Below are positions 4,788-60,262 of a stretch of DNA of 64,000 nucleotides, in pieces. Source of the DNA: Bacillota bacterium (lineage in GTDB: Bacteria; Bacillota; SHA-98; UBA4971); NCBI GenBank assembly GCA_050949175.1, contig JBMNFG010000011.1, forward strand, positions 195,749-259,748. The letters are read 5' to 3'. The translations under genes and the position numbers were made by a program. The notes beneath the pieces were generated by a model, which saw only the letters and a list, made by a program, of their open reading frames with translations, was not told the DNA's origin and did not search any database. Positions within the stretch are counted from its first letter, which is position 1. Each line of letters starts with the position of its first letter.

Positions 4788-5075
4788 GGATCTTGCCGCG
4801 CCTTGTATAGCGAACCTTGCTGCGCCTCGCAGAGCGAACCTTGGTGTTTCTTGTACGCGAATCTTACTGTCTCTTGTATAGCGGGCCCTGCTATCTCTTG
4901 TACGCAGATCTTACTGCGCCTCGCCCAGTGAACCTTTCTGTCGCCTGTATAGCGAGCCTTGCTGTTTCCTGTATAGCGAGCCTTGCTGTTTCCTGTATAG
5001 CGAACCTTTCTGTCTCTTGTACGGCGGACCTTGCTGTGTCTTGTACAGCGAACCGTACTGTCTCTTGCACAGCGG
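4788..5075. repeat. tandem array A: about 12 degenerate units of about 24 bp (consensus CTTGCTGTNTCTTGTATAGCGAAC)
   Basis: Direct reading of the sequence. Lies between the MATE stop codon and the nrdJ start codon. ORF-track ORFs here (4751-5179, 4817-5152, 4891-5142) are repeat artefacts. Confidence 0.9.
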
Positions 5076-5117
5076 GTGTTGCCATGTCGTGTTGCGAGTA
5101 TACTAAAACTGCGGTAG

Positions 5118-6488
5118 CTAGCGGATTTCGATGCGCTCCCAATTGCCCTTAGAGAAATATATCCGCCCGACAATGGCACGGACTACCCATTCAATGCATA
5201 TCCCAACCCATACCGCAGCAAGAGAGAGACGAAGGACATATACGATGAACGCAATCACAGGTATGCGCACAACCCATGTTCCGATGGCAGTCATTTTCAG
5301 GGCGGATCTTGTATCACCTGCACCTCTCAGCGAACCGCGGAAAGTATCAGCAATACCGATGAAGACCTGTTCCAAGCCGGCTATTCTCAAGCAGGTTGCA
5401 GCCAGCAGCATAACCTCAGTCTCAGCAGTAAAGAACGACACGATAATATGGGGAACCGCAAAGAAAAGAACAGCGAAACCGCCCATTGTCATAACAGCAT
5501 ACCTGATAGCCCTGTACGTAACCAGTCTGGCTCGGTCAGCCTTTTTCGCACCAAGGTTCTGTCCTACAAGGACCCCGGATGCGGTGGCAAAACCTAAGCC
5601 GGGCATAAAGGAAAGGGATTCTGCAGCGATCGTCACTTGATGAGCTGCGAAAGCTACTGTACCGAGGGATGCAATCATGAATGATGAGAGTATCCTCGCT
5701 GTGCTCGTCAGTGTTTCTTCGAGAGCAGCGGGGATGCTCAGTGTCACCAGGGTCTTAACTGTATTCATGTCAATCGCAAAAAGCTTTCGGATCTTCATGG
5801 AAAGCATTGATCTTCCCTGGAATAAGGCAACTAATGTAAGAATTCCTCCTACCACGTTTGCAAACAGCGTGGCAATAGCTGCACCGGTCACACCCAGCCT
5901 GGGAAATCCAAGAACACCGAAGATAAGGACATAGTCACCGATTGCATTGATCGTGTTGGTGACAAAAGACACAAACATCGGAGTGCGGGTATCCCCTGCA
6001 CCTCTTAGGATGCCTGCACCGACCTTCGTTAAAACGAGCATCACAGAGCCTGCTCCGACAATACGAAGGTATCCGATACCCATGGCGCTTACTTCGTCTT
6101 CAAATCCACCGAGGCGAAACACAAGAGGAGCAGAAAGGTGCGTACCAACGGTAAATATAATGCCTAAGAGAATCGAAATGAGCAATGCCTGCCCCGCAGC
6201 GTGAGCTGCTCTGCCGGTATCTCCTGCACCGACTGATCTGGCCACAACAGCCATAGCACCTACAGCAACCGCAGAAAACACCCAGACGAGGTTCCAGTAG
6301 ACACTCCCTGACAGGCCTACCGCACTGAGGGCCTGAGCTCCCAAATGTCCCACCATAGCGGTGTCTACAACCCAAATGAAGGTATGGAGGATATTCTCAA
6401 CAATTGCAGGCCACGCAAGCTTCAATACTTCCCTGTCTAACTCAGGATCGGAAAATTCCCTGGCATATACTGTGTTAATATCGGACAT
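5118..6488 (-). CDS. MATE family efflux transporter
   Basis: 12-TM profile with the MATE-typical N-terminus LKLAWPAIVENIL and a duplicated half. The ATG at 6488 has a GGAGAT RBS; the ORF could extend to 6596. Confidence 0.82.
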   Translation of the reverse strand: MSDINTVYAREFSDPELDREVLKLAWPAIVENILHTFIWVVDTAMVGHLGAQALSAVGLSGSVYWNLVWVFSAVAVGAMAVVARSVGAGDTGRAAHAAGQALLISILLGIIFTVGTHLSAPLVFRLGGFEDEVSAMGIGYLRIVGAGSVMLVLTKVGAGILRGAGDTRTPMFVSFVTNTINAIGDYVLIFGVLGFPRLGVTGAAIATLFANVVGGILTLVALFQGRSMLSMKIRKLFAIDMNTVKTLVTLSIPAALEETLTSTARILSSFMIASLGTVAFAAHQVTIAAESLSFMPGLGFATASGVLVGQNLGAKKADRARLVTYRAIRYAVMTMGGFAVLFFAVPHIIVSFFTAETEVMLLAATCLRIAGLEQVFIGIADTFRGSLRGAGDTRSALKMTAIGTWVVRIPVIAFIVYVLRLSLAAVWVGICIEWVVRAIVGRIYFSKGNWERIEIR

Positions 6489-6650
6489 AGTTTCTTCATC
6501 TCCTAAGTTGGACGCATCCCCTACTTTAACAAAAACCTTCATCTGCCGCAAGATACAGAGTCCGGTCTTCGTGTCCCTGTCATACTGCTTTGCCATTGCG
6601 ACACCGCAGGACGACGCCCCATTTATTATCGTCGATCTTTTCGGTGTTCG

Positions 6651-6980
6651 CTAGTAGGGTACCGCAGCCTCACCACAGTCCAGTGTCCGCCACTAGGGTA
6701 CCACAGTCCACAGCCCGGTCTCCTCTAGTAGGGTACCAGAACCGGTGTCATCTAGTAGAGTACCACAGCCCTGTGTCCGCCAGCAGGGTACCACAGTCCA
6801 CAGCCCGGTCTCCTCTAGTAGGGTACGTGAGCTCGTTGTCCTCTAGTAGAGCACCATAGTTCGGTGTCCTGTAGTAGAGTACCACAGCCCAGTGCCCTCT
6901 AGTAGAGTACCACAGCCCAGTGTCCTGTAGTAGGGTACCAGAGCCCAGTGTCCTGTAGTAGGCTATCACAGCCCGATAGC
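6651..6980. repeat. tandem array B: about 10 units of about 30 bp (CTAGTAGRGTACCACAGYCCAGTGTCCTG)
   Basis: Direct reading. Lies immediately upstream of the MATE start codon. Confidence 0.9.
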
Positions 6981-7064
6981 TACAAAAAGCGGCAGAAATC
7001 TAACTACATTTCCTCATCCAACCACACTTCCTTACATCGCCGGCCGGATTTGGGCCACCTCTTG

Positions 7065-7560
7065 AGATTTTTTCGGGCACATGCTCATAAGTGGTCTGTT
7101 TTCAACCACCTTTCCTCAAAGAGGTGCTTCAATTTCGACCACACTTTCCGATTTTTTCGAGCAAATGTTCATAAATGGGAGATTTTGAACCACCAAAACC
7201 GGCTCAGGTGGTAGAGATTCGACCACATTTTCAGGTTGTAGGCGGGTTTTGGGAGCTTTTTCGGGCTTAGGTGGTAGATTCTCTACCACATTTTCTAAGA
7301 ACGTGGCAGTTTTTCGCCCACCTTTTCAGAAAATGTGGGCGAGTTTCGACCACCAAACCGTGATTTGTAAGATTATGGGAGGCGCGGTGGTCGATATTCT
7401 ACCACCTTAACGCCTGATCATGGTAGAAAACCTTCCACCTTTAGGCCTCCTGGTGGGCGAAACTCTACCATTTTAGAGCTTACGCTCAAAACTGTGGTCG
7501 AAAAGCTGCCACCAAAAGGCGTTAAGGTGGTTGGTTTTCGACCACTCCAGCCCGTATGCC
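7065..7560 (-). repeat. dispersed hairpin-array element, copy 1 (inverted relative to copies 2 and 3)
   Basis: The reverse complement of 7300-7380 matches 38180-38260 almost base for base. The element is built of 20-nt hairpin cores GGTGGTMGA-N4-TCKACCACC. Confidence 0.88.
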
Positions 7561-8058
7561 TAGGCATTGGTGTATCGACGCATGCCTCGACGCCAGTATA
7601 TTGACAAATGCCCAGGCGCCAGTATATTAACGGATGCCTATGTGCCAGCGTATTGAGGTATACCTAGGCGTTAGTATATTAACGCGTGCCTAGGCGTTGG
7701 AGTGTTGACGAATGCATAGGCATTGGTGAATAGACGCATGTCTAATCGTCAGTGTATTGACGCAGGCATAGGCGTTAGTGTGTTCACGCATTGCTAGGCG
7801 ATAGCGATCGACTCAGGCCTAGTATGCCTAGGCATTGACATGTTGATGCGTGCCTAGGCGATACTGTATTGACGCATGCGGAGCATACCTAAGCGCTAGT
7901 GTATTGGCGCATTCCTAGGCCATACTTCATTGACGCAGACCTAGCATGCGTAGACGCTAACGTATCGACACGTGCCTAGGCGCCGGTGTATCGACACATG
8001 CATAGTCACTGGTGTATTGACGCATGCATAGGCTTTGGTGTATTGACGCATGCCTAGG
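7553..8058. repeat. tandem array C: about 17 units of about 30 bp (GCATGCCTAGGCGTTAGTGTATTGACGCAT)
   Basis: Direct reading. Abuts copy 1 of the dispersed element and the 3' end of the A2M-like gene. Confidence 0.9.
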
Positions 8059-11000
8059 GAGTGTATGCCACTGCGTGGATAGGTTTATAATAGTCTTCCG
8101 ATATCAGCTCCCGGACAACTGTGCCGCCTGTGTCAATAGTCCGCCAGACTGCAACCCGGATTCCAGGCTTTCCGGCGGAAATCTTCTCATTTTCGGAGTT
8201 GCCGCCTGCCATGAGTCTGGGCCTTTCTACATTCAAGACTTCCCGCGTCACCTCCACTTGCCTCTTGGCTAAAAGACCAGCCTTTACCTCGACGGTAAGT
8301 CTCGGTCCCTCTGTGCGTGCACTTATAGTCACCGGGACATCCAGTTGGTTCTTGAACCGCAAGTCAAGCCCGCTTTCTTCACTGATCGTAGCATCAAAGC
8401 CCGGTGGCACATAGTCTACAGGCTGTGAGTGCGGGTGACGCTCGACTATCTCCAGCCCCGCCCTGAGAACCGCGTTATATAGCGTAGTCGACACCTGGCA
8501 GATACCTCCTGCCACTCCTGGCACGCTCTTGCCTCCTGAGATCACCCTGGCTTCTTTGTACCCCTGCGCCTCAAGCCTCGGCCCTAATACCTTGTCCAAA
8601 GAAAACACTTCTCCGGGCTGGAGCACAAATCCGTCAATAGCCTGCGCAGCAAGGGCGATGTTGTGATTCCTATTCAATTCTGGCTCTTTAACAGTAGTAG
8701 AAAAACCCGCTAAGGTAGGCATCTCAACAACTATATCGTGGCTCCTGGAAGCACCGTATACGTCAGGCAAGTACATCCCCCACGCCATAGTCGGCATCAC
8801 CTTGTATTCTCCAGGCCGTTCAGCCCTCATGGAATACACTATCTCGTTCTCGCCCTCATCAAGATAAGTGCTGAAGATCGCTACTTTCTCATCGCGGATT
8901 TCTTTCTGCGCAAACCAGAAATCCCAGCTGTAGCGGTCAACCGGCTTATCGATCACTTCAAATCCTGACGGAAGGGGATCCTCAATCATGATGTACGTGC
9001 GAGGCCTATCCGTTCTCACGGTGAGCCTGACTATAATCTCATCTCCCTGATTCACACGGCCTGTAATCGGCTCAAAGGTGTTGCTTCCTTGGACTTTGCG
9101 GTAGTAATTGCGACTCACCTTCAGGCCGTTATCAACTTCTGCCATGGATTCAGACGGAGTCACGTACTTGCAGCTAACAGAGTAATAGAGCCTTCCCGTA
9201 CCCGTTTTCTTGACAACAAGTTCATTCTTGCCCGGAACCAATTGGCTCGGGTCTATCTCTATCACGCTCTCCTTATCCCATGCATTTTTCCCGGAAAACG
9301 CGATCCTTTCCACCTGTTTTCCATTGAGTGATACGTTTGCCGTTATATTTGACTTAATCTCCTCACGGAGCTTCATATACTCAGTTAGCGCCATTACGGC
9401 AATGGCAGTGTCTTTCGTAGATGTCCAGGCATTCCCCATGCGTGCTTCAGACAGCCACCTCACAACTTGCGGAGCCACAGGATGGTCAGGCTCTACAGCC
9501 AGTATTGCCAAAAGGGCATATGCAGTAGTCTCAATCCGATTGTCGGCCCAGTACCACTCCTCCTGTGACGCATCCCAGTAAGTCCTCGCGTTATCACCGC
9601 GAGCACGCTGCAAGAGGTCGCCAAGGACTATCCTTGCATCATCAAGCCTCTCCACGTTCTTCAAAGTCAGAGTAAGGAGAGCCAGAGAATAGTTGGAAAG
9701 CTCCTCGCGCCTCACGATCATCTCATCAAGACGGGGCAGGAACCTCTCTCCGACCTCAGACATAATGAACAAGTTGTATACCAGGTCATCAACGCTTTTC
9801 GGCTTGTTAAGGAATACGCCAAGTGCCCTCTTGCCTCGCATTAAAACGCCGTCATCTACGTGGTAACCTGCTTTCTTTGCGAGATTGAGGCCATACACTA
9901 CGTACGCAGTTGTCCTTGCTTTAGGCTCGTCATATCCCCACCAGCCCCAGCCGCCTTCCCAGTGCTGATACTTGTATAACCGGGCAAGGCCTGCGTTTAC
10001 CATATCCGGAAGGTCCTTCTCAATCTCAGGCATCTCAATGCCCAGTTCACGAAGGGTATTGGAAACGATAATGTTAGGCAGGAACGAGTTCATCGTCTGC
10101 TCGGTACAGCCGTACGGATAGGACGTTAGATATTCTAGAGCTCCTAAAGCAGTGGCAGCCACAGAAGGTGCAAGCCTGACTTCCACATTCAATGTGTTAT
10201 CTATTACATCTTCCGGAACATCAAATACGATTTTCACTTCTCCGTCTTCTGCCGGGTCTTTCCCTACCTCGCCGCCATCAAATACCTGAACCTGGTTACC
10301 AAAGGGCAGCACGGAAACGTTAAGCTCCAGAGCATCACTGAGTCTTCCTGCACTTGCTGACGCAGTAAACTTAGCAACACCTACTGTGTCGCATTTGATC
10401 TTCCAGTTAAGTGTAGCCTGCGCGCCGGGAGCCAGGTCTACTCCTCGCTCTTTCCCATCAACCAAGGCGACCCCTTCTGCTTTGAGGCTGACCTTGGCGT
10501 TTATTTGCCTGTCAGTATAGTTGTGGACGATTGTAGATATATAAGTAGTATCGCCCAGCCTGAAGAACCTAGGCACAGCCATCCTGACAATAAGGTCCTT
10601 CGTGGTCTTCACGTCACGCGTAGCGGACCCCACTTGGGTAGCCAATGTATGGCCTCTGACAGTTGCCCTCCATGTAGTTAAGGAATCAGGCATGGTGAAA
10701 CTGACTTTCGCTGTGCCTTTTCTGTCAGTCATAACTACAGGCGCCCAAAAGGCTGTATCCGGAAAATCCCTTCGGACATCTGAGTCACCTGCCTCCTTGT
10801 CTGCGCCTCCATAGTACCACCGCGGGAAAGAGTAGTTTGTCATAATCTGGTTCCATATCGACCCGTAGAATGCTTTCCGGATATCAGGTGCAAGCTCGCC
10901 CTGGATGGCATAAATCGATGCGTCCACAACTCCTATTGAGACTTCAGCCTGCACGGGACGGCCTGCATGGTCCAGCGTCTTAATGGTATAGGAAGCCCGC

Positions 11001-14140: not shown

Positions 14141-15001
14141 ATGATTACATATATAGTCCAACCCGGTGATACCCTTGCCTTAATCGCACAACGCTTCGGT
14201 TCTACAGTGCAGTCAATCGTCTCCACAAACAACATATCTGACCCGAACCTTATTTTTGTGGGACAGGTACTGCAGATACCGGTGGCAGGTGCACCGCCGA
14301 CTGCGACTCCGCCTACTACGCCGGCACCACCTACTCCTGCCCCTACACCGCCGTCGATTACAGTCCCTGACGGCTTCAGGCTCTACATTGTACAGCCTGC
14401 AGATACCCTGGCTGAGCTCGCAAGACGCTTCGGGACGACTGTTCAGGTCCTGGTTTCGGTAAACCGCATCCCTGATATAAACCTGATAACTGTGGGACAG
14501 GTCTTGTTTGTTCCCATAAGGCCGATTACAGTTGTGCCTGTGCCGCCGCCCAGTCCGCCGACACCGCCGGCACCGCCTACTCCACCTACACCTCCGGGAC
14601 CGCCTGTCACCGGAGTGAACCAGGTTTCCCTGGTCCAAGGCGGGCTTAGGCATACTTTCATGGTAAGTAGGACAACATTTTCACGGGGTGAGCCTGTCAG
14701 GCTGAGCCTCAGCAAGACGAATGTCACAGGATCCCCTGTGTCCATCACTTACAGAGGAAGCCAAAGATATGACTTTATCGTTACACGGGCAGGCAGAGAG
14801 ATTTGGCGGTGGTCTGAAGGGCGCTTCTTCACATTTGCTATCGAAACAATCTCTGTAGCCCCGGGAGAGCGTCTCCTCCACATACAGATATGGAATCAGA
14901 CTACAAACCGCGGAGTTCCGGTGTCTCCGGGAGTCTATACTGTCACAGCAGTTAACACAGGGACAGGAGTGAGGCTTAGCATTCAAATCGAGATTAGATG
15001 A
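14141..15001 (+). CDS. LysM-LysM protein with Pro/Thr-rich linkers and a C-terminal beta-rich domain (possibly BsuPI-like protease-inhibitor fold)
   Basis: Two LysM repeats ([17 protein letters not shown]..., [17 protein letters not shown]...) and PT-rich linkers. ATG at 14141 with a GGGAGA RBS; the ORF is also open from a GTG at 14111. Confidence 0.72.
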
Positions 15002-19424: not shown

Positions 19425-19590
19425 ATCTTCAGTTTTTGCCTGCGAGATAATTTATTCGCCGGAATACTATGAAAATCCTTCCATTAAATTCATTTCGGGA
19501 AACCGGTCAGAAAACCGATCAGGGAACCGGCTCCACCGTTTATCGGCCCGGCCCTTTTTTTGTTGGTTTAAGCCTGTAGCAGGGCATAAG

Positions 19591-19630
19591 ATAAAAACAG
19601 CCCCCGGGTCATGGATTAAACCCGGAGGCA
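19591..19630 (-). terminator. putative intrinsic terminator downstream of hutU
   Basis: Hairpin GCCTCCGGG-N12-CCCGGGGGC followed by UGUUUUUAU on the minus strand. Confidence 0.45.
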
Positions 19631-19644
19631 AAGGCGAGCCTCTT

Positions 19645-19690
19645 TTACACCCTCAAGAACAAACTCAAGAACAGACTTAAGAACAAAAGG
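19645..19690 (-). promoter_or_regulatory. three direct repeats TGTTCTTGAG spaced 12 bp apart, upstream of the AOR operon
   Basis: Minus-strand reading TGTTCTTAAGTCTGTTCTTGAGTTTGTTCTTGAGG, about 220 bp upstream of the aorA-like start codon. Confidence 0.4.
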
Positions 19691-19713
19691 ACGCATATGC
19701 TAAGCTATTCTTT

Positions 19714-25123: not shown

Positions 25124-25169
25124 TACTTGGGTCCCTACCAGTCCTCGTCATAACACTCTACCTGCAATG

Positions 25170-39980: not shown

Positions 39981-40008
39981 TGGTAAGAAGAGGCGTAAGA
40001 TTAGGTTG

Positions 40009-40050
40009 AAAAGGCCGCGGACACATTAGAGTCCCGCGGCCTTAAGTTTT
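40009..40050 (+). terminator. riboswitch expression-platform terminator
   Basis: GGCCGCGGAC-N10-GUCCCGCGGCC followed by UUAAGUUUU. Confidence 0.65.
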
Positions 40051-40059
40051 AATGGGGTA

Positions 40060-40150
40060 CTGATCGGAAAAACTATCAGAAATCCGGGAAAGTATCAGAA
40101 ACACCACAAAGCATGAGAAACTCCACAAAGCATTAGAAACACCGCTTAGG
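40060..40150. repeat. array M: about 18-bp units AGCATKAGAAACYCCACAA x about 5, inside the thiT leader
   Basis: Direct reading. Lies between the riboswitch terminator and the thiT RBS. Confidence 0.8.
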
Positions 40151-40186
40151 TAAGTCCTAGATTACTTTCAGAGGAGTTGTTCAAAA

Positions 40187-40837
40187 GTGACTGATTCATC
40201 ATGGCTGAAGAGCGTGGGAGATGCCCTTCTAAGAACAGAGAATATTATTATGATTGTGGCCATAGGCATCCTGGTCTATCTTTTGTGGCTCACAAATCCA
40301 TCTAAAACGAAGACAAGTGCAGGTAGAAGGCCTGTCTATACGATAACTGAAATCGGCGTGGCTGTTGCGCTTGCTTCGATACTCGGTATGATTAGACTCT
40401 ACAGAATGCCTCAAGGAGGCTCAGTTTCCCTGGAAATGCTGCCTATCTTCTACGTCGCACTCCGGAGCGGCGGAGGTGTAGGCATACTGACAGGCCTTGC
40501 ATTAGGGCTTGTACAATTGCTCTTAGGAGCGTATATCGTCCATCCGGTGCAACTCCTTCTTGACTACCCTCTGGCATTTGCCTTCCTCGGAGTGGCAGGT
40601 TTCTTCCGAAGACACCAGGTGCTCGGAATCATCTTAGGCGGGCTGGGCAGGTTCATAATGCACGTATTGTCAGGCGTTGTGTTCTTCGGAACCTATGCCC
40701 CGGAAGGGACTAACGTGTGGCTGTACTCAATGACATATAATGCGTCTTATATGATACCTGAACTCATCATCTGCATAATCGTCATGCTTGTCCTGGGTTT
40801 AGGGAGAAGCACCTCCACATCTGTGGGAAGAGGGTAG
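40187..40837 (+). CDS. thiT: thiamine transporter ThiT (ECF S-component, YuaJ family)
   Basis: 6-TM protein. The block LRSGGGVGILTGLALGLVQLLLGAYIVHP...LLLDYPLAFAFLGVAGFFRR aligns to L. lactis ThiT (LRRGLTAGLVGGLIWGIL...HAYIL...LEYLVAPVSLGIAGLFRQ). GTG start with a GAGGAG RBS. The TPP riboswitch lies upstream. Confidence 0.78.
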   Translation: MTDSSWLKSVGDALLRTENIIMIVAIGILVYLLWLTNPSKTKTSAGRRPVYTITEIGVAVALASILGMIRLYRMPQGGSVSLEMLPIFYVALRSGGGVGILTGLALGLVQLLLGAYIVHPVQLLLDYPLAFAFLGVAGFFRRHQVLGIILGGLGRFIMHVLSGVVFFGTYAPEGTNVWLYSMTYNASYMIPELIICIIVMLVLGLGRSTSTSVGRG

Positions 40838-41038: not shown

Positions 41039-41797
41039 ATGGAAAGCGTGAGAGAGCCAATGGATACTCAAGTAGCAGAAATTGCGCCTGAAGTATCCAC
41101 CCAGGAAAAACCTAAGAAGAAGAGAAAGCGGCATGTATTTACTGAGTATGAAGACGGGCTTCTAAGGAAGGTCCTGGAGAAAAAGCCGGGGGAACGGAAG
41201 AAGGAAATCGAAAGGCTTGCAAATCTCTTTCAGGTTCCTTATCTTACTTTGAGACACAGGTTTTATACGGTTATAAAGAAGCGCGCTGATGAAGAGGCTA
41301 AGGCAGCAGCTAAGAAGCGCGCCGCTCGGGCTGTTGAGGAGGTAATTCCAACCGCAATCGTGCCTCCTGAGGCAATACCTGATACCGAGCCCCGTCTTCA
41401 CAAAGATCCCATGGAAGAGATCCTGACTTTGCCTGCACGGGTGGAGCGTCTGGAAAAACGGATGTATGGAATGCTCGACCTCAAAGGCTTTGTAGATAGG
41501 CTGATCGACATCCAACACCAACTCGAACGGGAGCAAGAGCTCCTTGAGGAATTGGCTCGGAAAGAGCGGGAAATCGAACGCATTCAGGCTGACATGCAAA
41601 AGAAGATGGAGCGGATGAAAGCCCGGGAAGAGGAATTGGATGACCTGTATAAGCAGCTGGAAGTCACTCTCCACCAGTTTATGAACTTGTCATCCATAGA
41701 CAAACTGAAGGTGCTGGGCGATTTCACCATCAAGATAGAAACAGTAGTTGATAAATTCGGTAATATCATAAGGAGACGGCCAATCGTTGTACCATAA
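41039..41797 (+). CDS. putative Myb/SANT-like (RsfA-family-like) regulator with C-terminal coiled coil
   Basis: HVFTEYEDGLLRKVL...YLTLRHRFYTVIKKR resembles the RsfA helix-turn-helix; the Glu/Arg/Leu-rich C-terminus is coiled coil. ATG at 41039 with a GGGAGGG RBS. Confidence 0.38.
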   Translation: MESVREPMDTQVAEIAPEVSTQEKPKKKRKRHVFTEYEDGLLRKVLEKKPGERKKEIERLANLFQVPYLTLRHRFYTVIKKRADEEAKAAAKKRAARAVEEVIPTAIVPPEAIPDTEPRLHKDPMEEILTLPARVERLEKRMYGMLDLKGFVDRLIDIQHQLEREQELLEELARKEREIERIQADMQKKMERMKAREEELDDLYKQLEVTLHQFMNLSSIDKLKVLGDFTIKIETVVDKFGNIIRRRPIVVP

Positions 41798-41835
41798 TCA
41801 CACGTAATCGCACGTAATCGCACGTAATCACACAT
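41795..41835. repeat. 10-bp unit CACGTAATCG x4
   Basis: Direct reading. Confidence 0.8.
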
Positions 41836-42015
41836 AATCAGGATTGAGCTTAATGGCACCCCACAAATGCCATACACGTGGGTTTATCAACGGCGCGTGC
41901 CGATCATCCTCGCATGGACTCAATCGTGCTTCGGCACACACCGTGCTCACTCAGGTTTGCATCGCTGATACGCATGTTTTAAACTCTGTGCGTATCAGCA
42001 ATGTCATCCTGGACA

Positions 42016-45000
42016 TCATGTGATAAGTATTGCTTTTCTCATGGATAGAAGATATATGTAAGCCTCTTTTACAGGTTTTTTATAGATAGTCTCCAAAGCT
42101 TCTTTGTATACTAGGATCTGGCCAAGATACCTGCCGGCAATTGCCTCGGGATCATCCCCCGGCCTTCCGCCGGTCTTAAAGTCGATGAGGACAAACCCGT
42201 CATCTTCGTCAATAATGCAGTCAATGATACCTTGGACCAAGACGCGTTCGGTCTCAAGGACATCTTCGCCAAGCCCGGAAAGCTCGGGATATACTCTTGC
42301 AGCCGGAATTCCCAGAGAGAACGGTACCTCCCGCATAACTCTGTCAGGGTCTGCCGTGACACGCCTGCCCAAAGAACTCTCGAAAAAGTCACTGATCGAT
42401 CGAACATCAACTTCGCGCGCAAGTTCACCGGTGAGAAGCTCAGCATCGACCATCGTTTCGATACTCTCCTCGATGCTGGAGACATCCAATGGCCCTTTAA
42501 GATCTAAGTGCTGAATAACGAGGTGAGTGGCTTCCCCGCGCTCAGAAGGGGTAATTTTGGCTGATTGGAGAAATCCGGGAGGCGGCGCAAGCCGGCCTTG
42601 CTCAGGCGGAGCAGGAAACGCATCTTCCCGGCTCAATTCCGCATCTTCCGTGCTGAAATCGAATCTACGTTTTATCTCAGCCCAGGCTACTTTAGATGCC
42701 TTCTCCGCCAAAGGGCTGTACGGGTATTGCCAGGATGCGTGCGCCTGGATTTCCTGCCAGAGCTCGGGGTTAGGTTGCCTGCCAAGGGGGTGTGCCCTGA
42801 CAACCAGGTTCCAATCAATGTCTGCTCCTTTTAACCCTGAGTCTGTTAAGTTCTCAAACCCTGAACATGCTTCGCCCACAGAAAGCACGCTGACTGTGAA
42901 TTCAGCAAGATCATCGTAAACAACAGGATCCGCAGAATACCTGCCTGAGTCCTCATCCCCCGGTATTCGGGCTCCGTTTTTGTGCCGGACAAGACACGGC
43001 CCTACCCAATCCAGGAACCGTCTGGCCGAGTACAGCACATCCTCAGGCAAACCCCATCCTGTTGCCGGAGCGTTGGAACGCCATTCGGCAGCGGCTTTCG
43101 TAAGGTCCTTGTCTGATCCTACCAGGATCAATCTCTCTCTCGCCCTTGTCATGGCCACATAAAGGACGCGCATCTCTTCAGAGATTGTCTCCTTGAGCCT
43201 CGCCTCTCTCACGCCGTGATATGCAATTGTCGGATATTTAATCCGCTTTAAAAAGTCAGAATACACAGGCCCGAGCCCCTCTTCTGAATGGAAAAGGATA
43301 TCGCCTTTAAGGTCTTGCATATTGAACTCTTTCCCCATATCAGGGATGAAAACCACAGGGAACTCCAAGCCTTTGCTCTTGTGGATACTCATGATCCTTA
43401 CCACGTCTTCAGTCTCCCCTAAGGCCCTAGCTGTCCCAAGATCCCCTTCGGCCTCTCTCAACCTGTCAATAAAGCGAAGGAACCTTACCAGGCCTTGCCG
43501 GGAGAACCTGTCAAACTGCCTTGCGCGTTCGTGAAATGCCCTGAGGTTCGCCTGACGCTGGACGCCTCCGGGCATACCGCCGACATAGTCAAAGTACCCG
43601 GTATCGCGGTACAGCTGCCATACTAAAGCTGAAAGAGGAACCCTTCGCGCCACTGTTCGCCAGGATTCCAACCTCTCCAAGAATCCTGCAACCTTAGATG
43701 CGAGCTGCACATCTTCAAGCTCTGACGGAGCAGTCTCCAAGGCATGATAGAAGTCATTGTCCTTGCTGCACAAACGGATCTTAGCCAGCTCATCAGGGGA
43801 GAAACCGACTAATGGCGAACGGAGCACGGCAGCAAGGGGAATATCTTGCCTCGGGTTGTCGATGATCCTCAAAAGCGACAGCATCGTCTCTACTTCAACT
43901 GCCTCAAAGTAGCCTGTTCCAAGCTCTGCATAAGCCGGGATATCCGCTTGCCTGAAAACCTCCATCAACACATTTGCCCTTGCCTTCGTAGCGCGCATCA
44001 GCACAACGATATCCCGATATGACACAGGCCTATAGGCCTTTCTTTCTTTATCCCACACTTGAAACTCAGGGCCCGGATCGGTTGTTGTGCCTCGCACCAT
44101 CTCCGCAATGCGGCGGGCTATCAATCTCCCTTCAACCTCCAAGGCTTCCAGGTCTTCCGGATCCTCCGGATCTTTCAGGTCTTCCGGATCTTCGTCTTTC
44201 CATCCCCTGTCAGTGTCTTTGTCCGCAGCACCTCCGGGGCTGCCGTCACCGGGCCTGCCTGGCAGGTCTTCTACGTCACCTGACACCTGCCTATCCCAAG
44301 CAGCCCCCCTGTCAACTAGGTACACCTCTACAGGAGGGTTATCGATGTCCCCTCTGAAAAGCCCGGTATCGTGGGCAGGATAATCATATCCTGCCACCAA
44401 TTCAGCATCAGCATCATAGTCAATCTCGCCTACGCCTTGTGAAAACACCTGGCGAAAGATGAAATTGACGAAATTAATCACCGACTGCCTGCTACGAAAA
44501 TTCTTCGCAAGGTCAATCCGTTTACTGTCACCGGTTGCATCGCCTTTTGGATATTCTCTATGTTTCTCCATGAACAGCCTGGGCTCAGCCAGGCGGAACC
44601 TGTATATACTCTGCTTTACATCGCCTACCATGAAGCTGTTCCTGGGAGATGAAACAAGGCTCAAAATCTCATTTTGAACAGGGTTAATATCCTGGTACTC
44701 ATCGACCAGGATTTCCTTATACCTCTCCTGCAGCTCCTTCGCAACGTCAGACCCGGTCCATCCCCCTGTCTCTTCATCCGGCTCTCTCAGCACCTCCAGG
44801 CACAGATGCTCAAGATCATTAAAATCTACCAGGCTCTTCTCACGCTTTGCAGCCGTATACGCTTTGGCAAATTCCTTCACCACATGGACGAAGGCCTGCA
44901 TAGACTGGGCTATCGCTCTGATATCGTCAACCAGTTCTTGAGGAGGCCTTGAAAAGCAGTCCTCCTTTAGGCCTTTTAGGAGTTCTCTTGCCTCATTCCT

Positions 45001-49460: not shown

Positions 49461-49606
49461 GGATTATTCCTCCGCTCCTTCATAAATTGTTCCTCTTGTT
49501 GATAAAAAATCCTCCTCCCCTTGGATCCACAGGAAGTTCCCCTTGACGCAATATTGAACTTGGGGCATGCTTGATCCGAAGACGTGTTTGAGAGGAGAAG
49601 GCCACA

Positions 49607-53639: not shown

Positions 53640-54860
53640 TTGACGAGTACCGTAGTTGAGCTCACCGGGCATATTATTGATTCGAGGAGCCTTCCTAAGG
53701 TGCTGGACGTCATTATCGAGCGAGGCGGCGACTTCGACATCGAAGAACTCAAAGTAGGTAGGAAGAACAATGACCCTAGCTATGCCAGGATAATGATTGA
53801 AGCAGAAAGTCAGGAAGCCCTGGACATGATACTTGAAGAAATAAGACGTTTGGGTGCTGTTGAAATGCATCTGGATGAGGCAGAGGTAGAACCGGCACCG
53901 AAAGACGGAGTATTTCCGGACAACTTCTATTCCAGCACTAACCTGGAGACATTTTTGAAGATTCGTGGTTCATGGATCCCTGTAGATGACATTGAGATGG
54001 ATTGCGGCATTGTCGTTGATTTCTCAGGGGACCCCCCCACAGCTCGCTGCGTGCCTCTGGGCAACATAAAGAAAGGCGACATGGTAGTTGTCGGAGGAAA
54101 AGGAATCAAAGTGATTCCCCTTGAGAAATCCAGGAAACGAGAGGTATTCAGTTTCATGGGGAGTGAAGTGTCCAGTGAGCGCCCTAAGGCCTTGGCTTTA
54201 GCAAGCATCGCTGAGACAATGAAAGACATCAGGTCCCGCAATAAGAAGATCCTTGCAGTTGTAGGGCCTGCAGTTATCCATACAGGCGCAGGCAGGCATC
54301 TTTCCGCGCTTATTGACGCAGGCTATATCAATGTACTGTTCGGCGGAAATGCCGTAGCAACCCATGACGTGGAATGGGCCTTGCTGGGAACCTCCCTCGG
54401 CGTTTATCTGGACACAGGGATTGCAGCTCCTGCAGGGCATACCCACCATATTAAGGCGATTAACACAATCCGAAAGTACGGAAGCTTTGAAAAAGCTGTA
54501 GAAGCAGGCGTGCTTACTAAGGGGATCATGTATTCATGTGTCAAGAACGGAATAGACTACGTCCTTGCAGGATCAATACGAGACGATGGGCCGATGCCGG
54601 GTGTCATCACTGATTCGGCAGAAGCTCAAGATGCAATGCGCCGTTGCCTGAAAGATGTGGAGTTAGCGCTGATGCTGTCTACAATGCTGCACTCCATAGC
54701 CACAGGCAATCTGCTGCCGGGAAAGGTCAAGACGGTGTGTGTCGATATAAACCCTGCTACCGTTACAAAGCTGGTAGACCGCGGCAGCCACCAGGCTGTG
54801 GGGGTAGTAAGTGACGTAGAGCTGTTCTTGAAAGAACTGGCGTATCAACTTATAGGGTAG
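53640..54860 (+). CDS. LOR/SDH-conserved-region (TIGR00300) family protein, archaeal-type ornithine-cyclodeaminase-like
   Basis: 406 aa. The N-terminus MTSTVVELTGHIIDSRSLPKVLDVI and the overall length fit the family. Assigned from memory of the family, not from a search. Confidence 0.5.
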   Translation: MTSTVVELTGHIIDSRSLPKVLDVIIERGGDFDIEELKVGRKNNDPSYARIMIEAESQEALDMILEEIRRLGAVEMHLDEAEVEPAPKDGVFPDNFYSSTNLETFLKIRGSWIPVDDIEMDCGIVVDFSGDPPTARCVPLGNIKKGDMVVVGGKGIKVIPLEKSRKREVFSFMGSEVSSERPKALALASIAETMKDIRSRNKKILAVVGPAVIHTGAGRHLSALIDAGYINVLFGGNAVATHDVEWALLGTSLGVYLDTGIAAPAGHTHHIKAINTIRKYGSFEKAVEAGVLTKGIMYSCVKNGIDYVLAGSIRDDGPMPGVITDSAEAQDAMRRCLKDVELALMLSTMLHSIATGNLLPGKVKTVCVDINPATVTKLVDRGSHQAVGVVSDVELFLKELAYQLIG

Positions 54861-54990
54861 CTGCTTATAGGATAGTTGATTATCGCATAGTTGCGGATAG
54901 TTGCCTATCGGATAGTTGCTTATCGGATAGTTGCTTATCGGATAGCTACTTATGGGATAATTGCTTAATAGGATCGCTGCTTGTAGGGTA
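54856..54990. repeat. array O: 13-bp unit GGATAGTTGCTTATC x about 10
   Basis: Direct reading. Starts at the stop codon of the preceding gene. Confidence 0.85.
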
Positions 54991-55548: not shown

Positions 55549-55554
55549 CGGCAC

Positions 55555-55625
55555 TTTTCAAGGGCCTGCCTTTTTTGGGGTCTACCTTTTTCAAGAGTCT
55601 GCTTTTTCAGGAGTTCGCTTTTTGT
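55555..55625. repeat. about 18-bp unit (GYCTGCTTTTTCAAGRG) x4
   Basis: Direct reading. Confidence 0.7.
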
Positions 55626-55757
55626 CAACTGTTAAGCCCCAACCTCTGCTACCCCATAAGATACCGGTTTCGTTTGTATATGCACCGGGCACACTGCACG
55701 TTCCACATGTGTATATATAGCAAAGGCAGACTCTTGTGAAAATAGGAGGGGATCCCC

Positions 55758-57551
55758 TTGTCCCGGCTCAGACGGCTCCTTACACTAGCCCTCTTAAGTC
55801 CCATTTTCCCCGCATTTTTATGGGGGCCTTTCACCCATACGCACATTAACAGGAAAGCCTTGCAGAAAGCCAAGAAGCTTATGGAAAGCGGTGACGACAC
55901 AATCAACAAGCCGCTCGTCAACATGCTCACTTCATCAAAGAGAGTCCAAGAATCATATGCACTCGCCGCCAACGGTGCTGATGCCATATCCAGCTACCAT
56001 ACGTTAAATAACTTTACGGCCTACGACTATACCCATAATTCAATTCCTGACAACGCGAAAGGCCTTCCGAATTTCGGCTACACCCTGGTAGATACCTGGC
56101 ACAAGATGCCTGAATCAGCATGGAGTTCTCCTGATGCGAGGCTCCTCGACCTGGCTATTGCCTGCGGTTGGCTGTCTCATCAAGTAGCGGACTGGTACGC
56201 GCATTATGCATGTATAGACGGAGACGGCAACCTATGTGACCCGGAAGATGCCATAGCTGACGAAGTTTTTCGGTTTTCCGGATACTCCGATTCTCATAGA
56301 GTGATCGGGCACGATTATCCCGTGCCTCATCTTCGCCGCTATAACCTGGCTGACCATGGTTTGGCTGAATTTCTGGTAGATACGATAATCGTCGCCTCCC
56401 CCGACGGGCCGCAATTGCGCAATCTCTCCCTTCCCAACCTCTCGACTTTGAAAAACGGCTCCAATATTATCAGCACCGCATCTTTGGATTTCGGAGGGGC
56501 TGTTAAACTTCCCGAGGACCATGTCCCTATCTTGTGGCAAAACATGAACTTGATACTCCTGGGAATGTCCATCTTGCAGAAGCTGATATACCTGCGCAAG
56601 CCCAACTTCCACCGTGAAGCCGAACAGGTGGTCACCACGAAATATGTGGATCTTTCCATAGATCGCGTTGTAGATAAGGTCTTTAGAAAGAGTTTTGACG
56701 AAATGGCTGAGCTGGCAAGGTTCGGTAGGAAAATCCGCTCCCGGAACATGCCTATTGAACCATTAGACTCTAAGATCCAAAAGTATCCTGGCACTGTAAT
56801 ATTCAAGATAGCGCACTCCCTCGCGTCCTCTATGTCTCTTCCCGGCGGAAGTATCAGCCAAGCAACGTTCAATCGCACCCTAGCCATGATCGACAACCCT
56901 CTGGTGGCCTTTGAAAAAGCTCCTGTAATCGGCCCTTTAATGCGCTCACAATCCATAAGAAAAATCTTGTGGAACAAGGTAGGAAAACCGTCCCTTGAAA
57001 CCCTGATCACCGAATCCCTTGACAGCCTCGGAGGTCCTGACAAAGGTGTGCGAATACCTACAAGAGATGCACTCCTTGTCCTAGCCAATGCAGTGCTGCT
57101 AAAAGGAAGATCTTTAGAAAAGGCCCGACAGGACCTTGCATTGTCGCTGAAGCCTGTCATAACGGTGGTAAACTACGATGGGACAGCACTGGCTTCAGGT
57201 GCGGAATTGCCGACACAAAAAGAGCTCCTGGACATGGTGTTCAGACGACGAATGCTTATCTTCAGGCTCATACCGGCAGTCTCCAAACTGCGAGGCTTGC
57301 GTCATGCAGAGGAGAAATCTCTGGACATATCTTCGGTAAGGGTACGGTTCAACGGTTTTTCAATAACAGAATATCCGGAGTTCGCAGAAGCAGAGGCAAC
57401 TTACGAGAACGACAGCATAACCTCACCTGTGCTGGTTAAGGTCTCTTTTAAGTCCGGCTTCAGGCCAGGCAGGTACGACATCTTCGTTGACGTGCATGAC
57501 AAGGCCGGCGTGGGAGCTGAGTATCTCTACTGGGAGGTGGATCTCAGCTGA
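55758..57551 (+). CDS. secreted protein with N-terminal zinc-dependent phospholipase C / S1-P1-nuclease-like domain
   Basis: Signal peptide. After it, WGPFTHTHIN (the W-x-H metal ligand start) and a later HQVADWYAH His cluster. The C-terminal 300 aa are uncharacterised. Confidence 0.45.
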   Translation: MSRLRRLLTLALLSPIFPAFLWGPFTHTHINRKALQKAKKLMESGDDTINKPLVNMLTSSKRVQESYALAANGADAISSYHTLNNFTAYDYTHNSIPDNAKGLPNFGYTLVDTWHKMPESAWSSPDARLLDLAIACGWLSHQVADWYAHYACIDGDGNLCDPEDAIADEVFRFSGYSDSHRVIGHDYPVPHLRRYNLADHGLAEFLVDTIIVASPDGPQLRNLSLPNLSTLKNGSNIISTASLDFGGAVKLPEDHVPILWQNMNLILLGMSILQKLIYLRKPNFHREAEQVVTTKYVDLSIDRVVDKVFRKSFDEMAELARFGRKIRSRNMPIEPLDSKIQKYPGTVIFKIAHSLASSMSLPGGSISQATFNRTLAMIDNPLVAFEKAPVIGPLMRSQSIRKILWNKVGKPSLETLITESLDSLGGPDKGVRIPTRDALLVLANAVLLKGRSLEKARQDLALSLKPVITVVNYDGTALASGAELPTQKELLDMVFRRRMLIFRLIPAVSKLRGLRHAEEKSLDISSVRVRFNGFSITEYPEFAEAEATYENDSITSPVLVKVSFKSGFRPGRYDIFVDVHDKAGVGAEYLYWEVDLS

Positions 57552-57720
57552 TAGCTCGCGCCCGTCACTAATGCTGGTTAGGATCTCTTTTGAGTCCGGC
57601 TTCAGGCAGGCAGGTACGATATCCTCGTTGCGGTACATGACAAGACCGGCGTGGAAGCTGAGCACCTCTACTGGCAGGCAGATCCCAGCTGATAGCTAGC
57701 GTTCGTCAAACGCGATGTTA
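57552..57720 (+). repeat. degenerate tandem duplication of the last about 130 bp of the preceding gene (57420-57551), including its stop region
   Basis: Direct comparison. GATAGCTCGCGCCCGTCAC...GGCTTCAGGC...GGTACGA...GACAAG.CCGGCGTGG.AGCTGAG...CTCTACTGG occurs twice. Confidence 0.85.
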
Positions 57721-57784: not shown

Positions 57785-58080
57785 GCCTGCTAATACCGGA
57801 TGCACCCCGGCTCAGTTGGAATCTGTATGTCGCTCTATTGTAATGGACACTCGGGTAATACCCCAACAGCCTCACACTGTCACCCTGGATCGGCTGAAGC
57901 CTGCATATCGCACTACTGTAATGCACATTTGGGTAATACGTCAACATGCTATCGCTCTCACGTCCGCTCCGTTGAAGCCAGCATATCGCACTATTATAGT
58001 GCGCGCTTAGGCAATAACCCAACGTGCTCATACTCTCCCACGATTTGTTGCATATATGCGACAAATCGCACCATTAGATG
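57785..58080. repeat. array R: about 77-bp unit x about 3.5 (GCCTGCATATCGCACTACTGTAATGCACATTTGGGTAATACGTCAACATGCTATCGCTCTCACGTCCGCTCCGTTGAA)
   Basis: Direct reading. Lies immediately upstream of dmpA. Confidence 0.85.
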
Positions 58081-58102
58081 TAAAATACATTTGAGTGCAA
58101 CG

Positions 58103-59149
58103 ATGACGAGTATAAACAAGGATAAAGAACAAGAAACCGTCAGAACGAGGTGTTATGAGTTGCCGACCATTACAGATGTACCGGGCGTGCTTGTTGGACA
58201 TGCAGAGGACAGAGAGGGGCTTACCGGCTGCACTGCTGTTTTAGTCACCGATGGTGCAGTGGCAGGAGTTGATGTAAGAGGATCAGCCCCCGGCACGAGA
58301 GAAACGGATCTTATGAAACCCTGCAACCTGGTGGAGAAAGTCCACGCCATTGTGTTGGCAGGAGGCAGCGCATATGGCCTGGACGCTGCATGTGGAGCTA
58401 TGAGGTTTCTGGAGGAAAAAGGTGTGGGATTTGACACCGGTTTCGGTATAGTCCCTATTGTAGGCGCAGCGGTGATTTTCGATCTGGATGTTGGGAATCC
58501 GAAGCTGCGGCCTGATTCTGAAATGGGCTACTTAGCATGTAAGAACGCCTCTTCTTCAGTGCCTAGAGAAGGCAATGCCGGAGCCGGTCTCGGTGCAACT
58601 GTAGGCAAGCTTTACGGTCAGAGGTTTGCCATGAAAGGCGGATTGGGGAGCTGGTCAATAAAACTAGGCGCAGGAAAAGACCCGGAAGGCAACGAGGTTT
58701 CCGTTATTGTTGGGGCAATAGTCGTCGTAAATGCCCTGGGAAATATCATTGACCCGAAATCAGGAGAAGTGATTGCAGGTGCATACGACAGAGACAGAGG
58801 AGAGTTCATCTCCCTGACCTATGGTGATTTCCAGGGCTTCTCAGGCAACACCACTATAGGCGTTGTAGCCACAAACGCTGTCCTCTCCAAAGAAGGAGCA
58901 AATAAAGTTGCCCAGATGGCCCACAATGGCTTAGCCCGGGTGATACGGCCTGTGCACACAATGTACGATGGAGACACTGTTTTTGCTCTCTCAACGGGAC
59001 AAGTAGCATTCACCGGAGATAAGGCAAAAGATATCTCTTTGATTGGAGAAGCAGCTGCATCTGCCATAGAAGTCGCAGTCGTACGGGCTGTTAAGAACGC
59101 GGACGAATTAGCCTCAATTCCTGCTGCAAGCAGTATTATGGATTCCTAA
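58103..59149 (+). CDS. peptidase S58 (DmpA/L-aminopeptidase) family protein
   Basis: GTGCTAVLVTDGAVAGVDVRGSAPGTRETDL and the self-processing G-S/T region. ATG at 58103; the ORF-track extension to 57800 lies inside array R. Confidence 0.85.
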   Translation: MTSINKDKEQETVRTRCYELPTITDVPGVLVGHAEDREGLTGCTAVLVTDGAVAGVDVRGSAPGTRETDLMKPCNLVEKVHAIVLAGGSAYGLDAACGAMRFLEEKGVGFDTGFGIVPIVGAAVIFDLDVGNPKLRPDSEMGYLACKNASSSVPREGNAGAGLGATVGKLYGQRFAMKGGLGSWSIKLGAGKDPEGNEVSVIVGAIVVVNALGNIIDPKSGEVIAGAYDRDRGEFISLTYGDFQGFSGNTTIGVVATNAVLSKEGANKVAQMAHNGLARVIRPVHTMYDGDTVFALSTGQVAFTGDKAKDISLIGEAAASAIEVAVVRAVKNADELASIPAASSIMDS

Positions 59150-59191
59150 TGTAAACAGCTCGATTCCAACCCTCCCGTCCGAAGCGACAGC

Positions 59192-59675
59192 CTGGGGTGG
59201 TCGAAAAACAACCACCGAAACGCTCTTTAGTGGCAGCTTTTCTACCACAGTTTTGGGCGCTTGCTCGTAAATGGTAGATTCTCGCCCACCAGAACGCTCA
59301 AAGGTGGAAGGTTTTCTACCATGATCAGGTGCTAGGGTGGTAGGATATCGACCACCACGCCTCCCATAATCTGGTAATTTGCGGTTTAGTGGTCGAAACT
59401 CACCCACATTTTCTGAAAAAGTGGGCGAAAAACTGCCACGTTTTTAAAAAAAGTGGTAGAGAATCTACCACCTAAGCCCCAAAAAGCTCCGAAAACCGGG
59501 CCGCAACCTGAAAACGTGGTCGAATCTCTACCACCTGAGCCGGTTTGGGTGGTTCAGAATCGCCCATTTATGAACGTTTGCTCGAAAAAATCCAAAAGTG
59601 TGGTCGACATTGAACCACCTCTTCAAGGAAAGGTGGTTGAAACCGAACCATTTATGAGCGTTTGCTCGTAAAAAC
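59192..59675 (+). repeat. dispersed hairpin-array element, copy 3
   Basis: Collinear with copy 2 along the whole length (for example GTGGTAGAGAATCTACCACCTAAGCC, GTGGTCGAATCTCTACCACC). Confidence 0.88.
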
Positions 59676-60169
59676 CGGGAAGCGGGCTAAATCAGTTCAG
59701 CATTTCGAGAAAATGTGGTCGGAAACAGGCTCGGTTACCTTGCCTTAGCTCATCAAGCCCGGTTCTCAGAAGCTATGGCCTTCGTTAATAGGTGCAGTTA
59801 CGATTACATAGGTCCAGTTGAGATTACAGATGAGAGAAATCGTGTACTGTGTGAAAGCTACATAGCAACACCTCTCCCTAGGATCAGATAGTAGAAGGAT
59901 TGCTAGCGTATAAACGAGAGTATACAATATAGTAGGGTATATATCAGAGAGAAACACATGCAGGAAGCGTGGTTCGTAACTTCGTAACAAGGATACATGT
60001 AGAATCCTGATCCTTACCAGGACCGGAATTCTGCACAGGTACACCTGTTACCCGGCGTTTCTCTCAAACTTACAACGTCCGGCACTCTGATAGGGACTGT
60101 CAGTAGGCGGCTTTTTTCAAGAAGGCTGTTTTGCGAAGAGTCGTAACCGAGCAAGACCGCACTTTTGGA

Positions 60170-60262
60170 AAAGCTGCCGCAAGAAGAGCCTCAGAGCACT
60201 CAAAGCGCTCAAAGCACTGAGAGCATTCGGAGCACTCAGAGCACTCGGAGCACTCTTGGATC
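60170..60262. repeat. array T: 9-bp unit AGCACTCAG/AGCGCTCAA x about 9
   Basis: Direct reading, about 50 bp upstream of the GTG start of the next gene. Confidence 0.85.

Follow-up and report, generated by a model that had tools for sequence, protein, structure and literature searches.

Degenerate tandem-repeat arrays and a dispersed ~500-bp element in the intergenic DNA of an uncultured Bacillota species of anaerobic digesters

The stretch of DNA described here, called the window throughout, is a 64,000-nucleotide piece of a Bacillota bacterium genome (assembly GCA_050949175.1, contig JBMNFG010000011.1, positions 195,749 to 259,748), and our subject is the repetitive DNA between its genes: a series of degenerate tandem-repeat arrays and three copies of a dispersed element of about 500 bp. 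Genes were mapped as the longest non-overlapping open reading frames (ORFs), annotated with Pfam, and this map defines the coding and non-coding bases used below. It holds genes for a thiolase, NrdJ, a MATE transporter, a 1676-aa alpha-2-macroglobulin/VanW protein, AOR, urocanase, FtsH, TilS and SpoIIE, followed by a MacAB-type ABC system, Yip1, adenine deaminase (Ade), ThiT, AddAB, a radical-SAM/SPASM protein, LOR/SDH, DmpA, an ECF S-component and a hybrid-cluster protein. The initial annotation, made by reading the sequence without database searches, had called this gene content ordinary, and the Pfam map agrees, as it fits a spore-forming Clostridia-like bacterium. The closest relatives by SpoIIE are metagenome-assembled genomes (MAGs), several with isolate names in anaerobic-digester style, and all the named relatives by TilS and SpoIIE are MAGs labelled Bacillota bacterium. 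The species forms a tight cluster in which TilS is at least 99.2% identical, the next TilS homologue being 76% identical, and no relative of intermediate identity was present in the databases searched. The exact FtsH protein of the window occurs in 515 blocks of the assembly collection, and a literature search on the taxon name found no paper. The window is from an uncultured Bacillota species of anaerobic digesters with a spore-forming, Clostridia-like gene set.

Tandem Repeats Finder (TRF) was run on the whole window, and coverage was counted for arrays scoring at least 50. Its 60 rows of output merge into about 24 arrays, around 20 of which are degenerate intergenic arrays, which bears out the earlier claim of more than 15 sequence-distinct arrays. 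Arrays cover 3,066 of the 10,719 non-coding bases (29%) as against 357 of the 53,281 coding bases (0.7%), a density of 53 bp/kb, or 5.3% of the window. No base was covered by TRF arrays when the gaps were shuffled with dinucleotides preserved (n = 20), and 50 kb of Escherichia coli K-12, scanned in the same way as a control, contained a single array of 48 bp, which was genic (approximately 0.1% coverage; 0 of 7 gaps). In the window, 13 of the 15 gaps of at least 200 bp hold an array. About 30% of the sequence in long gaps consists of TRF arrays, to which the three copies of the dispersed element add approximately 14%, so that repeats of both kinds make up roughly 45% of the intergenic DNA in the 64 kb. 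The arrays stand at both ends of genes, as first described, but the statement that they fill essentially all non-coding space longer than 200 bp was too strong, since the gap at 29345-29931 has no TRF array; small gaps likewise lack them. The 8.8 kb directly left of the window is almost devoid of arrays by TRF.

The array periods are 9/18, 10, 12, 14, 15, 15, 16, 19, 21, 24, 24, 26, 27, 28, 78, 141 and 169 bp. The unit lengths read earlier by eye were close to these, although the arrays given as 30 bp are 26-28 bp by TRF, and those given as 13, 22 and 160 bp are 14, 21 and 169 bp. The divergence between units had been put at 5-20%; TRF matches within arrays are 67-88%, corresponding to an inter-unit divergence of 12-33%. 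Read in register, the arrays proved genuine but strongly decayed, with neighbouring units 65-91% identical. Adjacent units were more similar than distant ones in all 13 arrays with enough units to compare, and multi-unit, higher-order periods are present (71, 90, 52, 54 and 169 bp). AT skew ranges from -0.42 to +0.52 across arrays, with no common base bias. Conservation along the unit is very uneven, as with TTCAAAG in the 16-bp unit and TACA..GC in the 21-bp unit, and several units contain 6-8-bp palindromes (CCTAGG, GGTACC, GGCTCA-N5-TGAGCC).

The arrays do not constitute a sequence family. All-against-all BLAST sorted about 100 non-element arrays, from around 340 kb, into some 90 unrelated sequence clusters; a motif common to all arrays was rejected, as the comparison grouped just element-internal repeats and duplicates at the same locus. 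Two further candidates gave little. The string CTTGTATAGC is common to the 24-bp and 27-bp units and does not extend to other arrays, and a reading in terms of restriction sites or CTAG enrichment has no more behind it than that CTAG is depleted in genes and not depleted in non-coding DNA. Nor are these clustered regularly interspaced short palindromic repeats (CRISPR), as the arrays are free of spacers and there is no cas gene among the genes of the window.

The dispersed element is a newly recognised repeat that the initial annotation did not see. Its three copies in the window lie at 7049-7555 (minus strand), at 38017-38514 (plus strand, in the gap between the 2-hydroxyacid dehydrogenase gene and ade) and at 59187-59674 (plus strand, with a less conserved 5' head from about 59150); they occupy three of the largest gaps and are 86-88% identical along their full length. 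The element is built of 12 GTGG-N11-CCAC sites, often in the form GTGGTCGAAAA-N4-CCAC and in both orientations, with start-to-start spacings of 33, 41, 33, 33, 52, 32, 32, 63, 33, 51 and 33 bp. The invariant GTGG/CCAC tetramers are in this way set at near-whole helical-turn spacings (32-33, 41, 51-52 and 63 bp). There are 29 GTGGTCGAAAA-N4-CCAC-like sites in the window, on both strands, and all fall within the three element copies, where 0.06 would be expected by chance. The site core, GTCGAAAA, has what we take to be a resemblance to the Spo0A box. A semi-conserved head leads into the core of the element, which is sharply bounded at GTGGTCGAAAA; the 3' end is ragged. The 'spacers' between its degenerate sites are conserved among copies, unlike those of CRISPR arrays.

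Either strand of the element folds far better than shuffled sequence. In an alignment of 20 copies, the four core pairs of each site are invariant, the fifth and sixth pairs are mostly unpaired, and pairs changed on both sides number 6, versus 4.8 in shuffles. Because only the core pairs hold and covariation is at the shuffled level, the conserved feature of the element appears to be the sequence GTGG...CCAC and not a stem.

The element is widespread in metagenomes. At least 80 stretches of metagenome contigs, in at least 38 locus clusters, carry a conserved 19-mer of it, and most of the stretches listed contain the element whole or in large part, at 84-93% identity and next to genes that differ from its neighbours in the window. 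Contig ends often fall within the element, and one contig of 111 kb has four copies. It occurs about once per 20-30 kb, is strictly intergenic and has no preferred orientation relative to neighbouring genes; around 60% of the gaps that contain it also hold other arrays. A second class of copies, approximately 66-70% identical to the first, was assigned to a sister species: copy identity is 87% within the species of the window (species A), 83% within the sister species (species B) and 66% between the two. No protein family was found to recur beside element copies or arrays in the flanks examined (about 280 kb of representative loci), and a transposase was rejected as a recurrent neighbour; in the same 280 kb around element copies no RAYT (REP-associated tyrosine transposase) or transposase gene was seen. 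Inspection of 20 copies by eye revealed neither terminal inverted repeats nor target-site duplications.

Six related MAG loci, with SpoIIE 60-83% identical, keep the gene order of the window from about 11 to 41 kb and provide a direct comparison. TRF density in these syntenic relatives is 6-16 bp/kb versus 53 bp/kb in the window, and the gaps of the relatives are 3-10 times shorter. The SpoIIE-TilS gap is 1506 bp in the window and 76-500 bp in relatives, the dehydrogenase-Ade gap 1510 bp and 142-628 bp, and the Ade-Yip1 gap 266 bp and 32-106 bp, respectively. The array-free gaps are 129 bp in the window and approximately 106-198 bp in relatives for TilS-FtsH, and 64 bp and approximately 64-80 bp for FtsH-HutU. 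These shorter gaps and lower densities in syntenic relatives agree with the initial suggestion of a lineage-specific phenomenon. In a BLAST search of the window gaps against about 450 kb of other loci, the orthologous cores next to genes matched (the SpoIIE upstream region, the thiamine pyrophosphate (TPP) riboswitch and the HlyD promoter region), whereas the arrays never did.

Two arrays have local seeds, or precursors, in relatives. The 21-bp unit of the HlyD/Yip1 gap is present as a single copy at the same position in loci L011-L013, and the tilS leader of the same three loci contains 2-5 degenerate copies of about 19 bp where the window has about 14 of 27 bp. The element lies in the dehydrogenase-Ade gap of L011, L012 and L060, and not in that of L013 or L016. 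From this distribution of sequences it is likely that the element was gained by the ancestor that species A shares with its sister, and that arrays proliferated afterwards in species A. The sister species carries the element without the arrays, so the element is not sufficient to cause them. A different dispersed repeat, beginning GATCACCATGAGAC...GGTGGAGACCGTTGAAC, was seen at L012:12650-12850, L013:3640-3830 and L013:18110-18215; it does not occur in the window.

The arrays are not confined to the window, an outcome that passes the first of the refuting conditions set in the initial annotation. About 275 kb of other loci were fetched by means of the element, a sample selected for element presence, and were assigned to the same species by the similarity of their element copies and by co-occurrence in assemblies with contigs identical to the window. 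TRF density in these loci is 34 bp/kb, so that the window is richer than average. At loci with the element variant of species A, 19 of 39 gaps of at least 200 bp have arrays, as do 12 of the 31 that lack the element. Arrays were found in 1 of 9 non-element gaps of this length at sister-species loci and in 1 of 12 in the more distant relatives L013-L016.

Ten strain loci, differing by 0.03-0.5%, were compared. The SpoIIE-TilS gap has alleles of 1506, 1418, 1337 and 1280 bp among strains. The array of 169-bp units at 25819-26330, with four alleles among strains otherwise 99.5-99.9% identical, is the only one that varies in length; every other array for which a strain or metagenome locus is available has a fixed length. 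Its units are 85-87% identical, and it is the youngest array. The ten loci have 78 polymorphic sites, too few for a comparison of array and synonymous rates; those in gaps are concentrated in one recombination-like tract and in the 169-bp array, which is misaligned. A single 289-bp gap (19425-19713) accounts for 17 of the 78, as if one strain or a few had recombined there.

In the left part of the window, TRF calls a 24-bp array in the gap from the MATE stop to the nrdJ start (4785-5094; about 12 units, with a higher-order period of 71 bp), a 28-bp array upstream of the MATE gene (6642-6975; about 12 units, with a higher-order period of 90 bp), and a 26-bp array of about 19 units with higher-order periods of 52 and 61 bp downstream of the alpha-2-macroglobulin/VanW gene (7556-8058). 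The last has CCTAGG and GCATGC palindromes and is among the few arrays that fold better than shuffles. Two small 12-bp arrays (2.6 and 3 units) lie between hutU and the Fer4/AOR gene (19500-19687). The tilS leader has a 27-bp array of about 14 units (25136-25530), and farther into the SpoIIE-TilS gap the 169-bp higher-order units lie within a region (25560-26560) where about 18 palindromes of the type GGCTCA-N5-TGAGCC, counted by eye, recur every 53-57 bp or so. Regularly spaced palindromic sites mark two regions, this one and the dispersed element. The GGCTCA-N5-TGAGCC sites were rejected as a dispersed family, as they were found at 25.6-26.5 kb only.

A 21-bp array of 10 units occupies the divergent HlyD/Yip1 gap (34115-34335), and the convergent Yip1/Ade gap has a 14-bp array of 5 units (35248-35320) and a 12-bp array of 6 (35393-35474), all by TRF. 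Upstream of ade lie a 24-bp array of 4 units (37282-37379, TRF), a repeat of about 48-64 bp in 3 units (37375-37602) and a 16-bp array of 12 units (37786-37977; TRF 37786-37968). The repeats just 5' of the ade start (37375-37602; L012:916-983; L013:~915-985) share CCGTCTCC / GGAGACGG with the ribosome-binding region and resemble a duplicated ribosome-binding segment, in this species and in relatives. A 15-bp array of 6 units abuts the stop of the 2-hydroxyacid dehydrogenase gene (38702-38791, TRF). Three 19-bp units stand between the TPP riboswitch and thiT (40084-40143; TRF 40089-40143), and a 10-bp array of 4.6 units overlaps the stop of a 282-aa gene (41795-41840, TRF).

In the right part of the window, a 15-bp array of 9.5 units lies downstream of the LOR/SDH gene (54849-54987, TRF), and a T-rich array of about 16 bp has approximately 5 degenerate units (55549-55628), TRF calling 55586-55623 only. 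A 141-bp tandem duplication, 84-86% identical, spans 57423-57708, its first copy being the 3' end and stop of a 597-aa gene. A 78-bp array of 3 units lies upstream of dmpA (57803-58036), a 20-bp repeat of 2 units at 59788-59828 (TRF), and a 9/18-bp array of 7 units upstream of the ECF S-component gene (60185-60255, TRF). The sole sizeable genic arrays in the window are in-frame 9/27-bp arrays in a LysM/BsuPI protein (14546-14605) and AddA (44136-44193).

Three other features of the window were recorded. The approximately 345 bp upstream of SpoIIE (29345-29690), in the one long gap devoid of arrays, are 74-79% conserved in 6 of 6 relatives, and are probably a conserved promoter or leader, or else SpoIIE itself begins farther upstream. 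A 73-nt near-perfect palindrome (1994-2066) lies in the interval from the nrdJ stop to the start of a 239-aa gene, with two 36-nt arms, 75% complementary and 1 nt apart. At about 49.5 kb, in the gap that separates addB from the radical-SAM gene (49461-49606), the genes change from the minus strand on the left to the plus strand on the right, and the minimum of cumulative GC skew falls here too; the switch may be related to replication or may be a local consequence of how the genes are oriented. No dnaA gene is present in the window.

We put at about 60% the probability that these observations reflect repeats, tolerated and probably non-adaptive, that have enlarged the intergenic DNA of this species in particular: decayed minisatellites and a dispersed element. 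Slipped-strand mispairing or unequal exchange would first give a tandem duplication of a short local sequence; more slippage, or unequal recombination, would then lengthen the array, in part by blocks of several units, while point mutation degraded it. Arrays would survive where genes are unharmed, and so would accumulate between genes and, within genes, as in-frame arrays only. The element of about 0.5 kb, with its helically phased sites, would have multiplied separately in this species and its sister species. The 141-bp repeat includes a gene 3' end with its stop, so the duplication process seems to copy any local sequence. Periods divisible by three make up 23 of 63 in intergenic DNA (P = 0.59, no bias) and 8 of 10 in genes; in-frame periods within genes beside unbiased ones between them are as a selection filter predicts. 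An apparent overall enrichment for multiples of three (53 of 126) disappeared once genic and element-internal repeats were separated. We infer that slippage or unequal recombination was the mechanism and that most arrays are selectively neutral; relative to its relatives, the species would have a higher rate of duplication or weaker deletion or selection. The initial annotation had seen in the arrays either a special repeat-generating mechanism or selection for repeat-filled space; nothing requires either, and ordinary duplication and slippage with weak removal fits.

Features of this kind are already known, at far lower density. Minisatellites and variable-number tandem repeats (VNTR), such as the mycobacterial interspersed repetitive unit (MIRU) loci of Mycobacterium tuberculosis, likewise consist of head-to-tail intergenic units of 10-170 bp that grow by slippage or unequal exchange, and one of the arrays here varies among strains. 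The window arrays have the head-to-tail units beyond chance and the local-sequence origin expected of minisatellites. They differ in density, at 5.3% of the window versus about 0.1% in the E. coli control, and MIRUs are one dispersed family, whereas the window units are not and most of the arrays are non-polymorphic. In a 2025 survey, divergent tandem repeats made up on average 2.1% of a prokaryotic genome and were enriched between genes (PMC12418385). The element shares with repetitive extragenic palindromic (REP) sequences and bacterial interspersed mosaic elements (BIMEs), with REPINs (RAYT-associated palindromic repeats) and with miniature inverted-repeat transposable elements (MITEs) its intergenic location, high copy number, short inverted-repeat modules in both orientations, GTGG start and non-coding nature. 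In contrast to REP/BIME, the whole block of about 500 bp is collinear at 84-93% identity and is not a free combination of REPs; in contrast to REP/BIME and REPINs, stems beyond 4 bp appear not to be maintained; and in contrast to MITEs, the 20 copies inspected by eye showed neither terminal inverted repeats nor target duplications. The density of arrays here is extreme, and an element of phased GTGG-N11-CCAC sites is new.

Several points weigh against tolerated, non-adaptive inflation. Copy number is identical in many independent samples save at one array, with no current instability. The build-up of arrays in this species, which has the same genes as its relatives, is left unexplained. The uneven conservation of units (TTCAAAG, TACA..GC) could reflect a bound motif and not the shared ancestry of units, and the persistence of tilS-leader repeats across species hints at a function for that array. 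Finally, the genome-wide estimate would hold insofar as loci selected by the element, and placed in the species by element similarity and co-occurrence, are representative of it.

It is possible, if unlikely, that the arrays are functional cis-elements acting on double-stranded DNA, predicted sites for regulators or nucleoid proteins that would be kept by selection and would tune or insulate their neighbours. Such a reading is kept alive by the mixture of invariant and variable positions within units, by the 6-8-bp palindromes in several of them, by tilS-leader repeats conserved by position in relatives, by copy numbers stable across samples and by the element's invariant GTGG/CCAC tetramers, phased near whole helical turns. 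However, the unit differs from array to array, so that tens of binding proteins would be needed, and the same genes stand without arrays in relatives. Arrays also lie in convergent gaps with nothing to regulate (35198-35463, 41798-42015), and one is a mere duplicated gene end. In 4592-8060, promoter-like sites are no more frequent than in shuffled sequence; promoter arrays were rejected as a candidate, one TTGACA-N16-TATATT being present in the 26-bp array and the total number of sites matching shuffles. The re-amplification of mutated units would, moreover, also give uneven conservation.

A lineage-specific machine that builds the arrays, whether an unusual polymerase, the loss of an anti-slippage exonuclease or of mismatch repair, or an activity linked to the element, is a doubtful explanation. 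It would account for the abrupt difference from syntenic relatives (53 bp/kb as against 6-16 bp/kb; arrays in 13 of 15 vs 1 of 12 long gaps), the many unit sizes at many loci and the presence of other arrays in about 60% of element gaps, and Borg extrachromosomal elements, for which something of the kind has been proposed, provide a precedent. Borg repeats are perfect, A-rich, recent and variable in the population, and about half are genic (Schoelmerich et al. 2023, PMC9879509). The window arrays are like them in being pervasive, unique to their locus, of local-sequence origin and lacking in close relatives, with only the genic units divisible by three. They are unlike them in that units are 12-33% diverged (matches of 67-88%, not perfect), without A-enrichment or any base bias, near-fixed among strains and almost all intergenic, and in that the replicon here is a bacterial chromosome and not an archaeal extrachromosomal element. 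That divergence and those near-fixed lengths give no sign of ongoing high activity, and the sister species carries the element without arrays; no protein gene recurs beside elements or arrays in the flanks examined, nor does the window contain a suggestive gene. We are similarly hesitant about the proposal that the element and at least the palindromic arrays are predicted binding or loading platforms that would organise or regulate the chromosome, or the product of a dedicated, Borg-like repeat-generating activity.

The initial annotation noted strong palindromes and thought structured-RNA or protein-binding roles possible. Such roles are not general: of 20 arrays, 16 are no more stably folded than their shuffles and 4 are (the 26-bp, 10-bp and 9/18-bp arrays and the 24-bp one at 37282), and in 4592-8060, the stretch scanned, promoter-like sites do not exceed chance. 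Nowhere in the window does an Rfam 15 family reach its gathering score. A TPP riboswitch upstream of the gene for the ThiT-type thiamine transporter (39856-39984, plus strand) scores 52.7 bits versus a gathering score of 54.3, and in 37200-40200, which contains an element copy, it is the only match at E <= 1, the element having none. It is therefore improbable that the arrays are transcribed as structured RNAs or as untranslated region (UTR) elements that would act as mRNA stabilisers, sponges or riboregulators. Four arrays and the element do outfold shuffles, and many arrays likely lie in 5' or 3' UTRs, but the remaining arrays fold like shuffled sequence with no Rfam match except the riboswitch, and the element pairs only at its invariant tetramers, with covariation equal to the shuffled control and an orientation that is random with respect to neighbouring genes.

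Some arrays are crossed by long ORFs, and a few of these are annotated, which might suggest that the arrays encode repetitive small proteins or extensions of neighbouring ones. Public gene callers annotate a spurious 117-aa ORF inside the SpoIIE-TilS array (L001:7915-8268), and stop-free arrays give false N-terminal extensions to Yip1 (34265-34450), DmpA (57800-58140) and the ECF S-component (60165-60300). We find a coding role very improbable, given that intergenic periods are not enriched for multiples of three. The variability of the 27-bp unit, scored by hand against its profile, is independent of the codon positions of either overlapping ORF, and no Pfam domain was found in the one array ORF tested. 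The S58 Pfam domain of DmpA starts at residue 123 of the long ORF, placing the 78-bp array outside the real gene, that of the ECF S-component starts at about residue 52, and the Yip1 domain likewise begins after the array; relatives lack the extensions. Assembly artefact can be all but dismissed, for although certain contigs end inside arrays or elements, the arrays are base-for-base identical in independent ENA, NCBI and JGI assemblies of different samples.

The compactness of bacterial chromosomes is normally the result of deletion bias. A free-living spore-former with about 45% repeats in the intergenic DNA of a 64-kb stretch, whose closest known relatives have the same gene order without them, is a natural test case, and is usable for studying the birth of tandem repeats, the persistence of neutral DNA in bacteria and the balance of insertion and deletion. 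The arrays also have practical consequences, as they break short-read assemblies and create spurious ORFs and false N-terminal extensions, and the element of about 500 bp is a convenient marker of the lineage in digester metagenomes. If it is true that the phased GTGG-N11-CCAC arrays bind protein, they would represent a new family of sites distributed across the chromosome.

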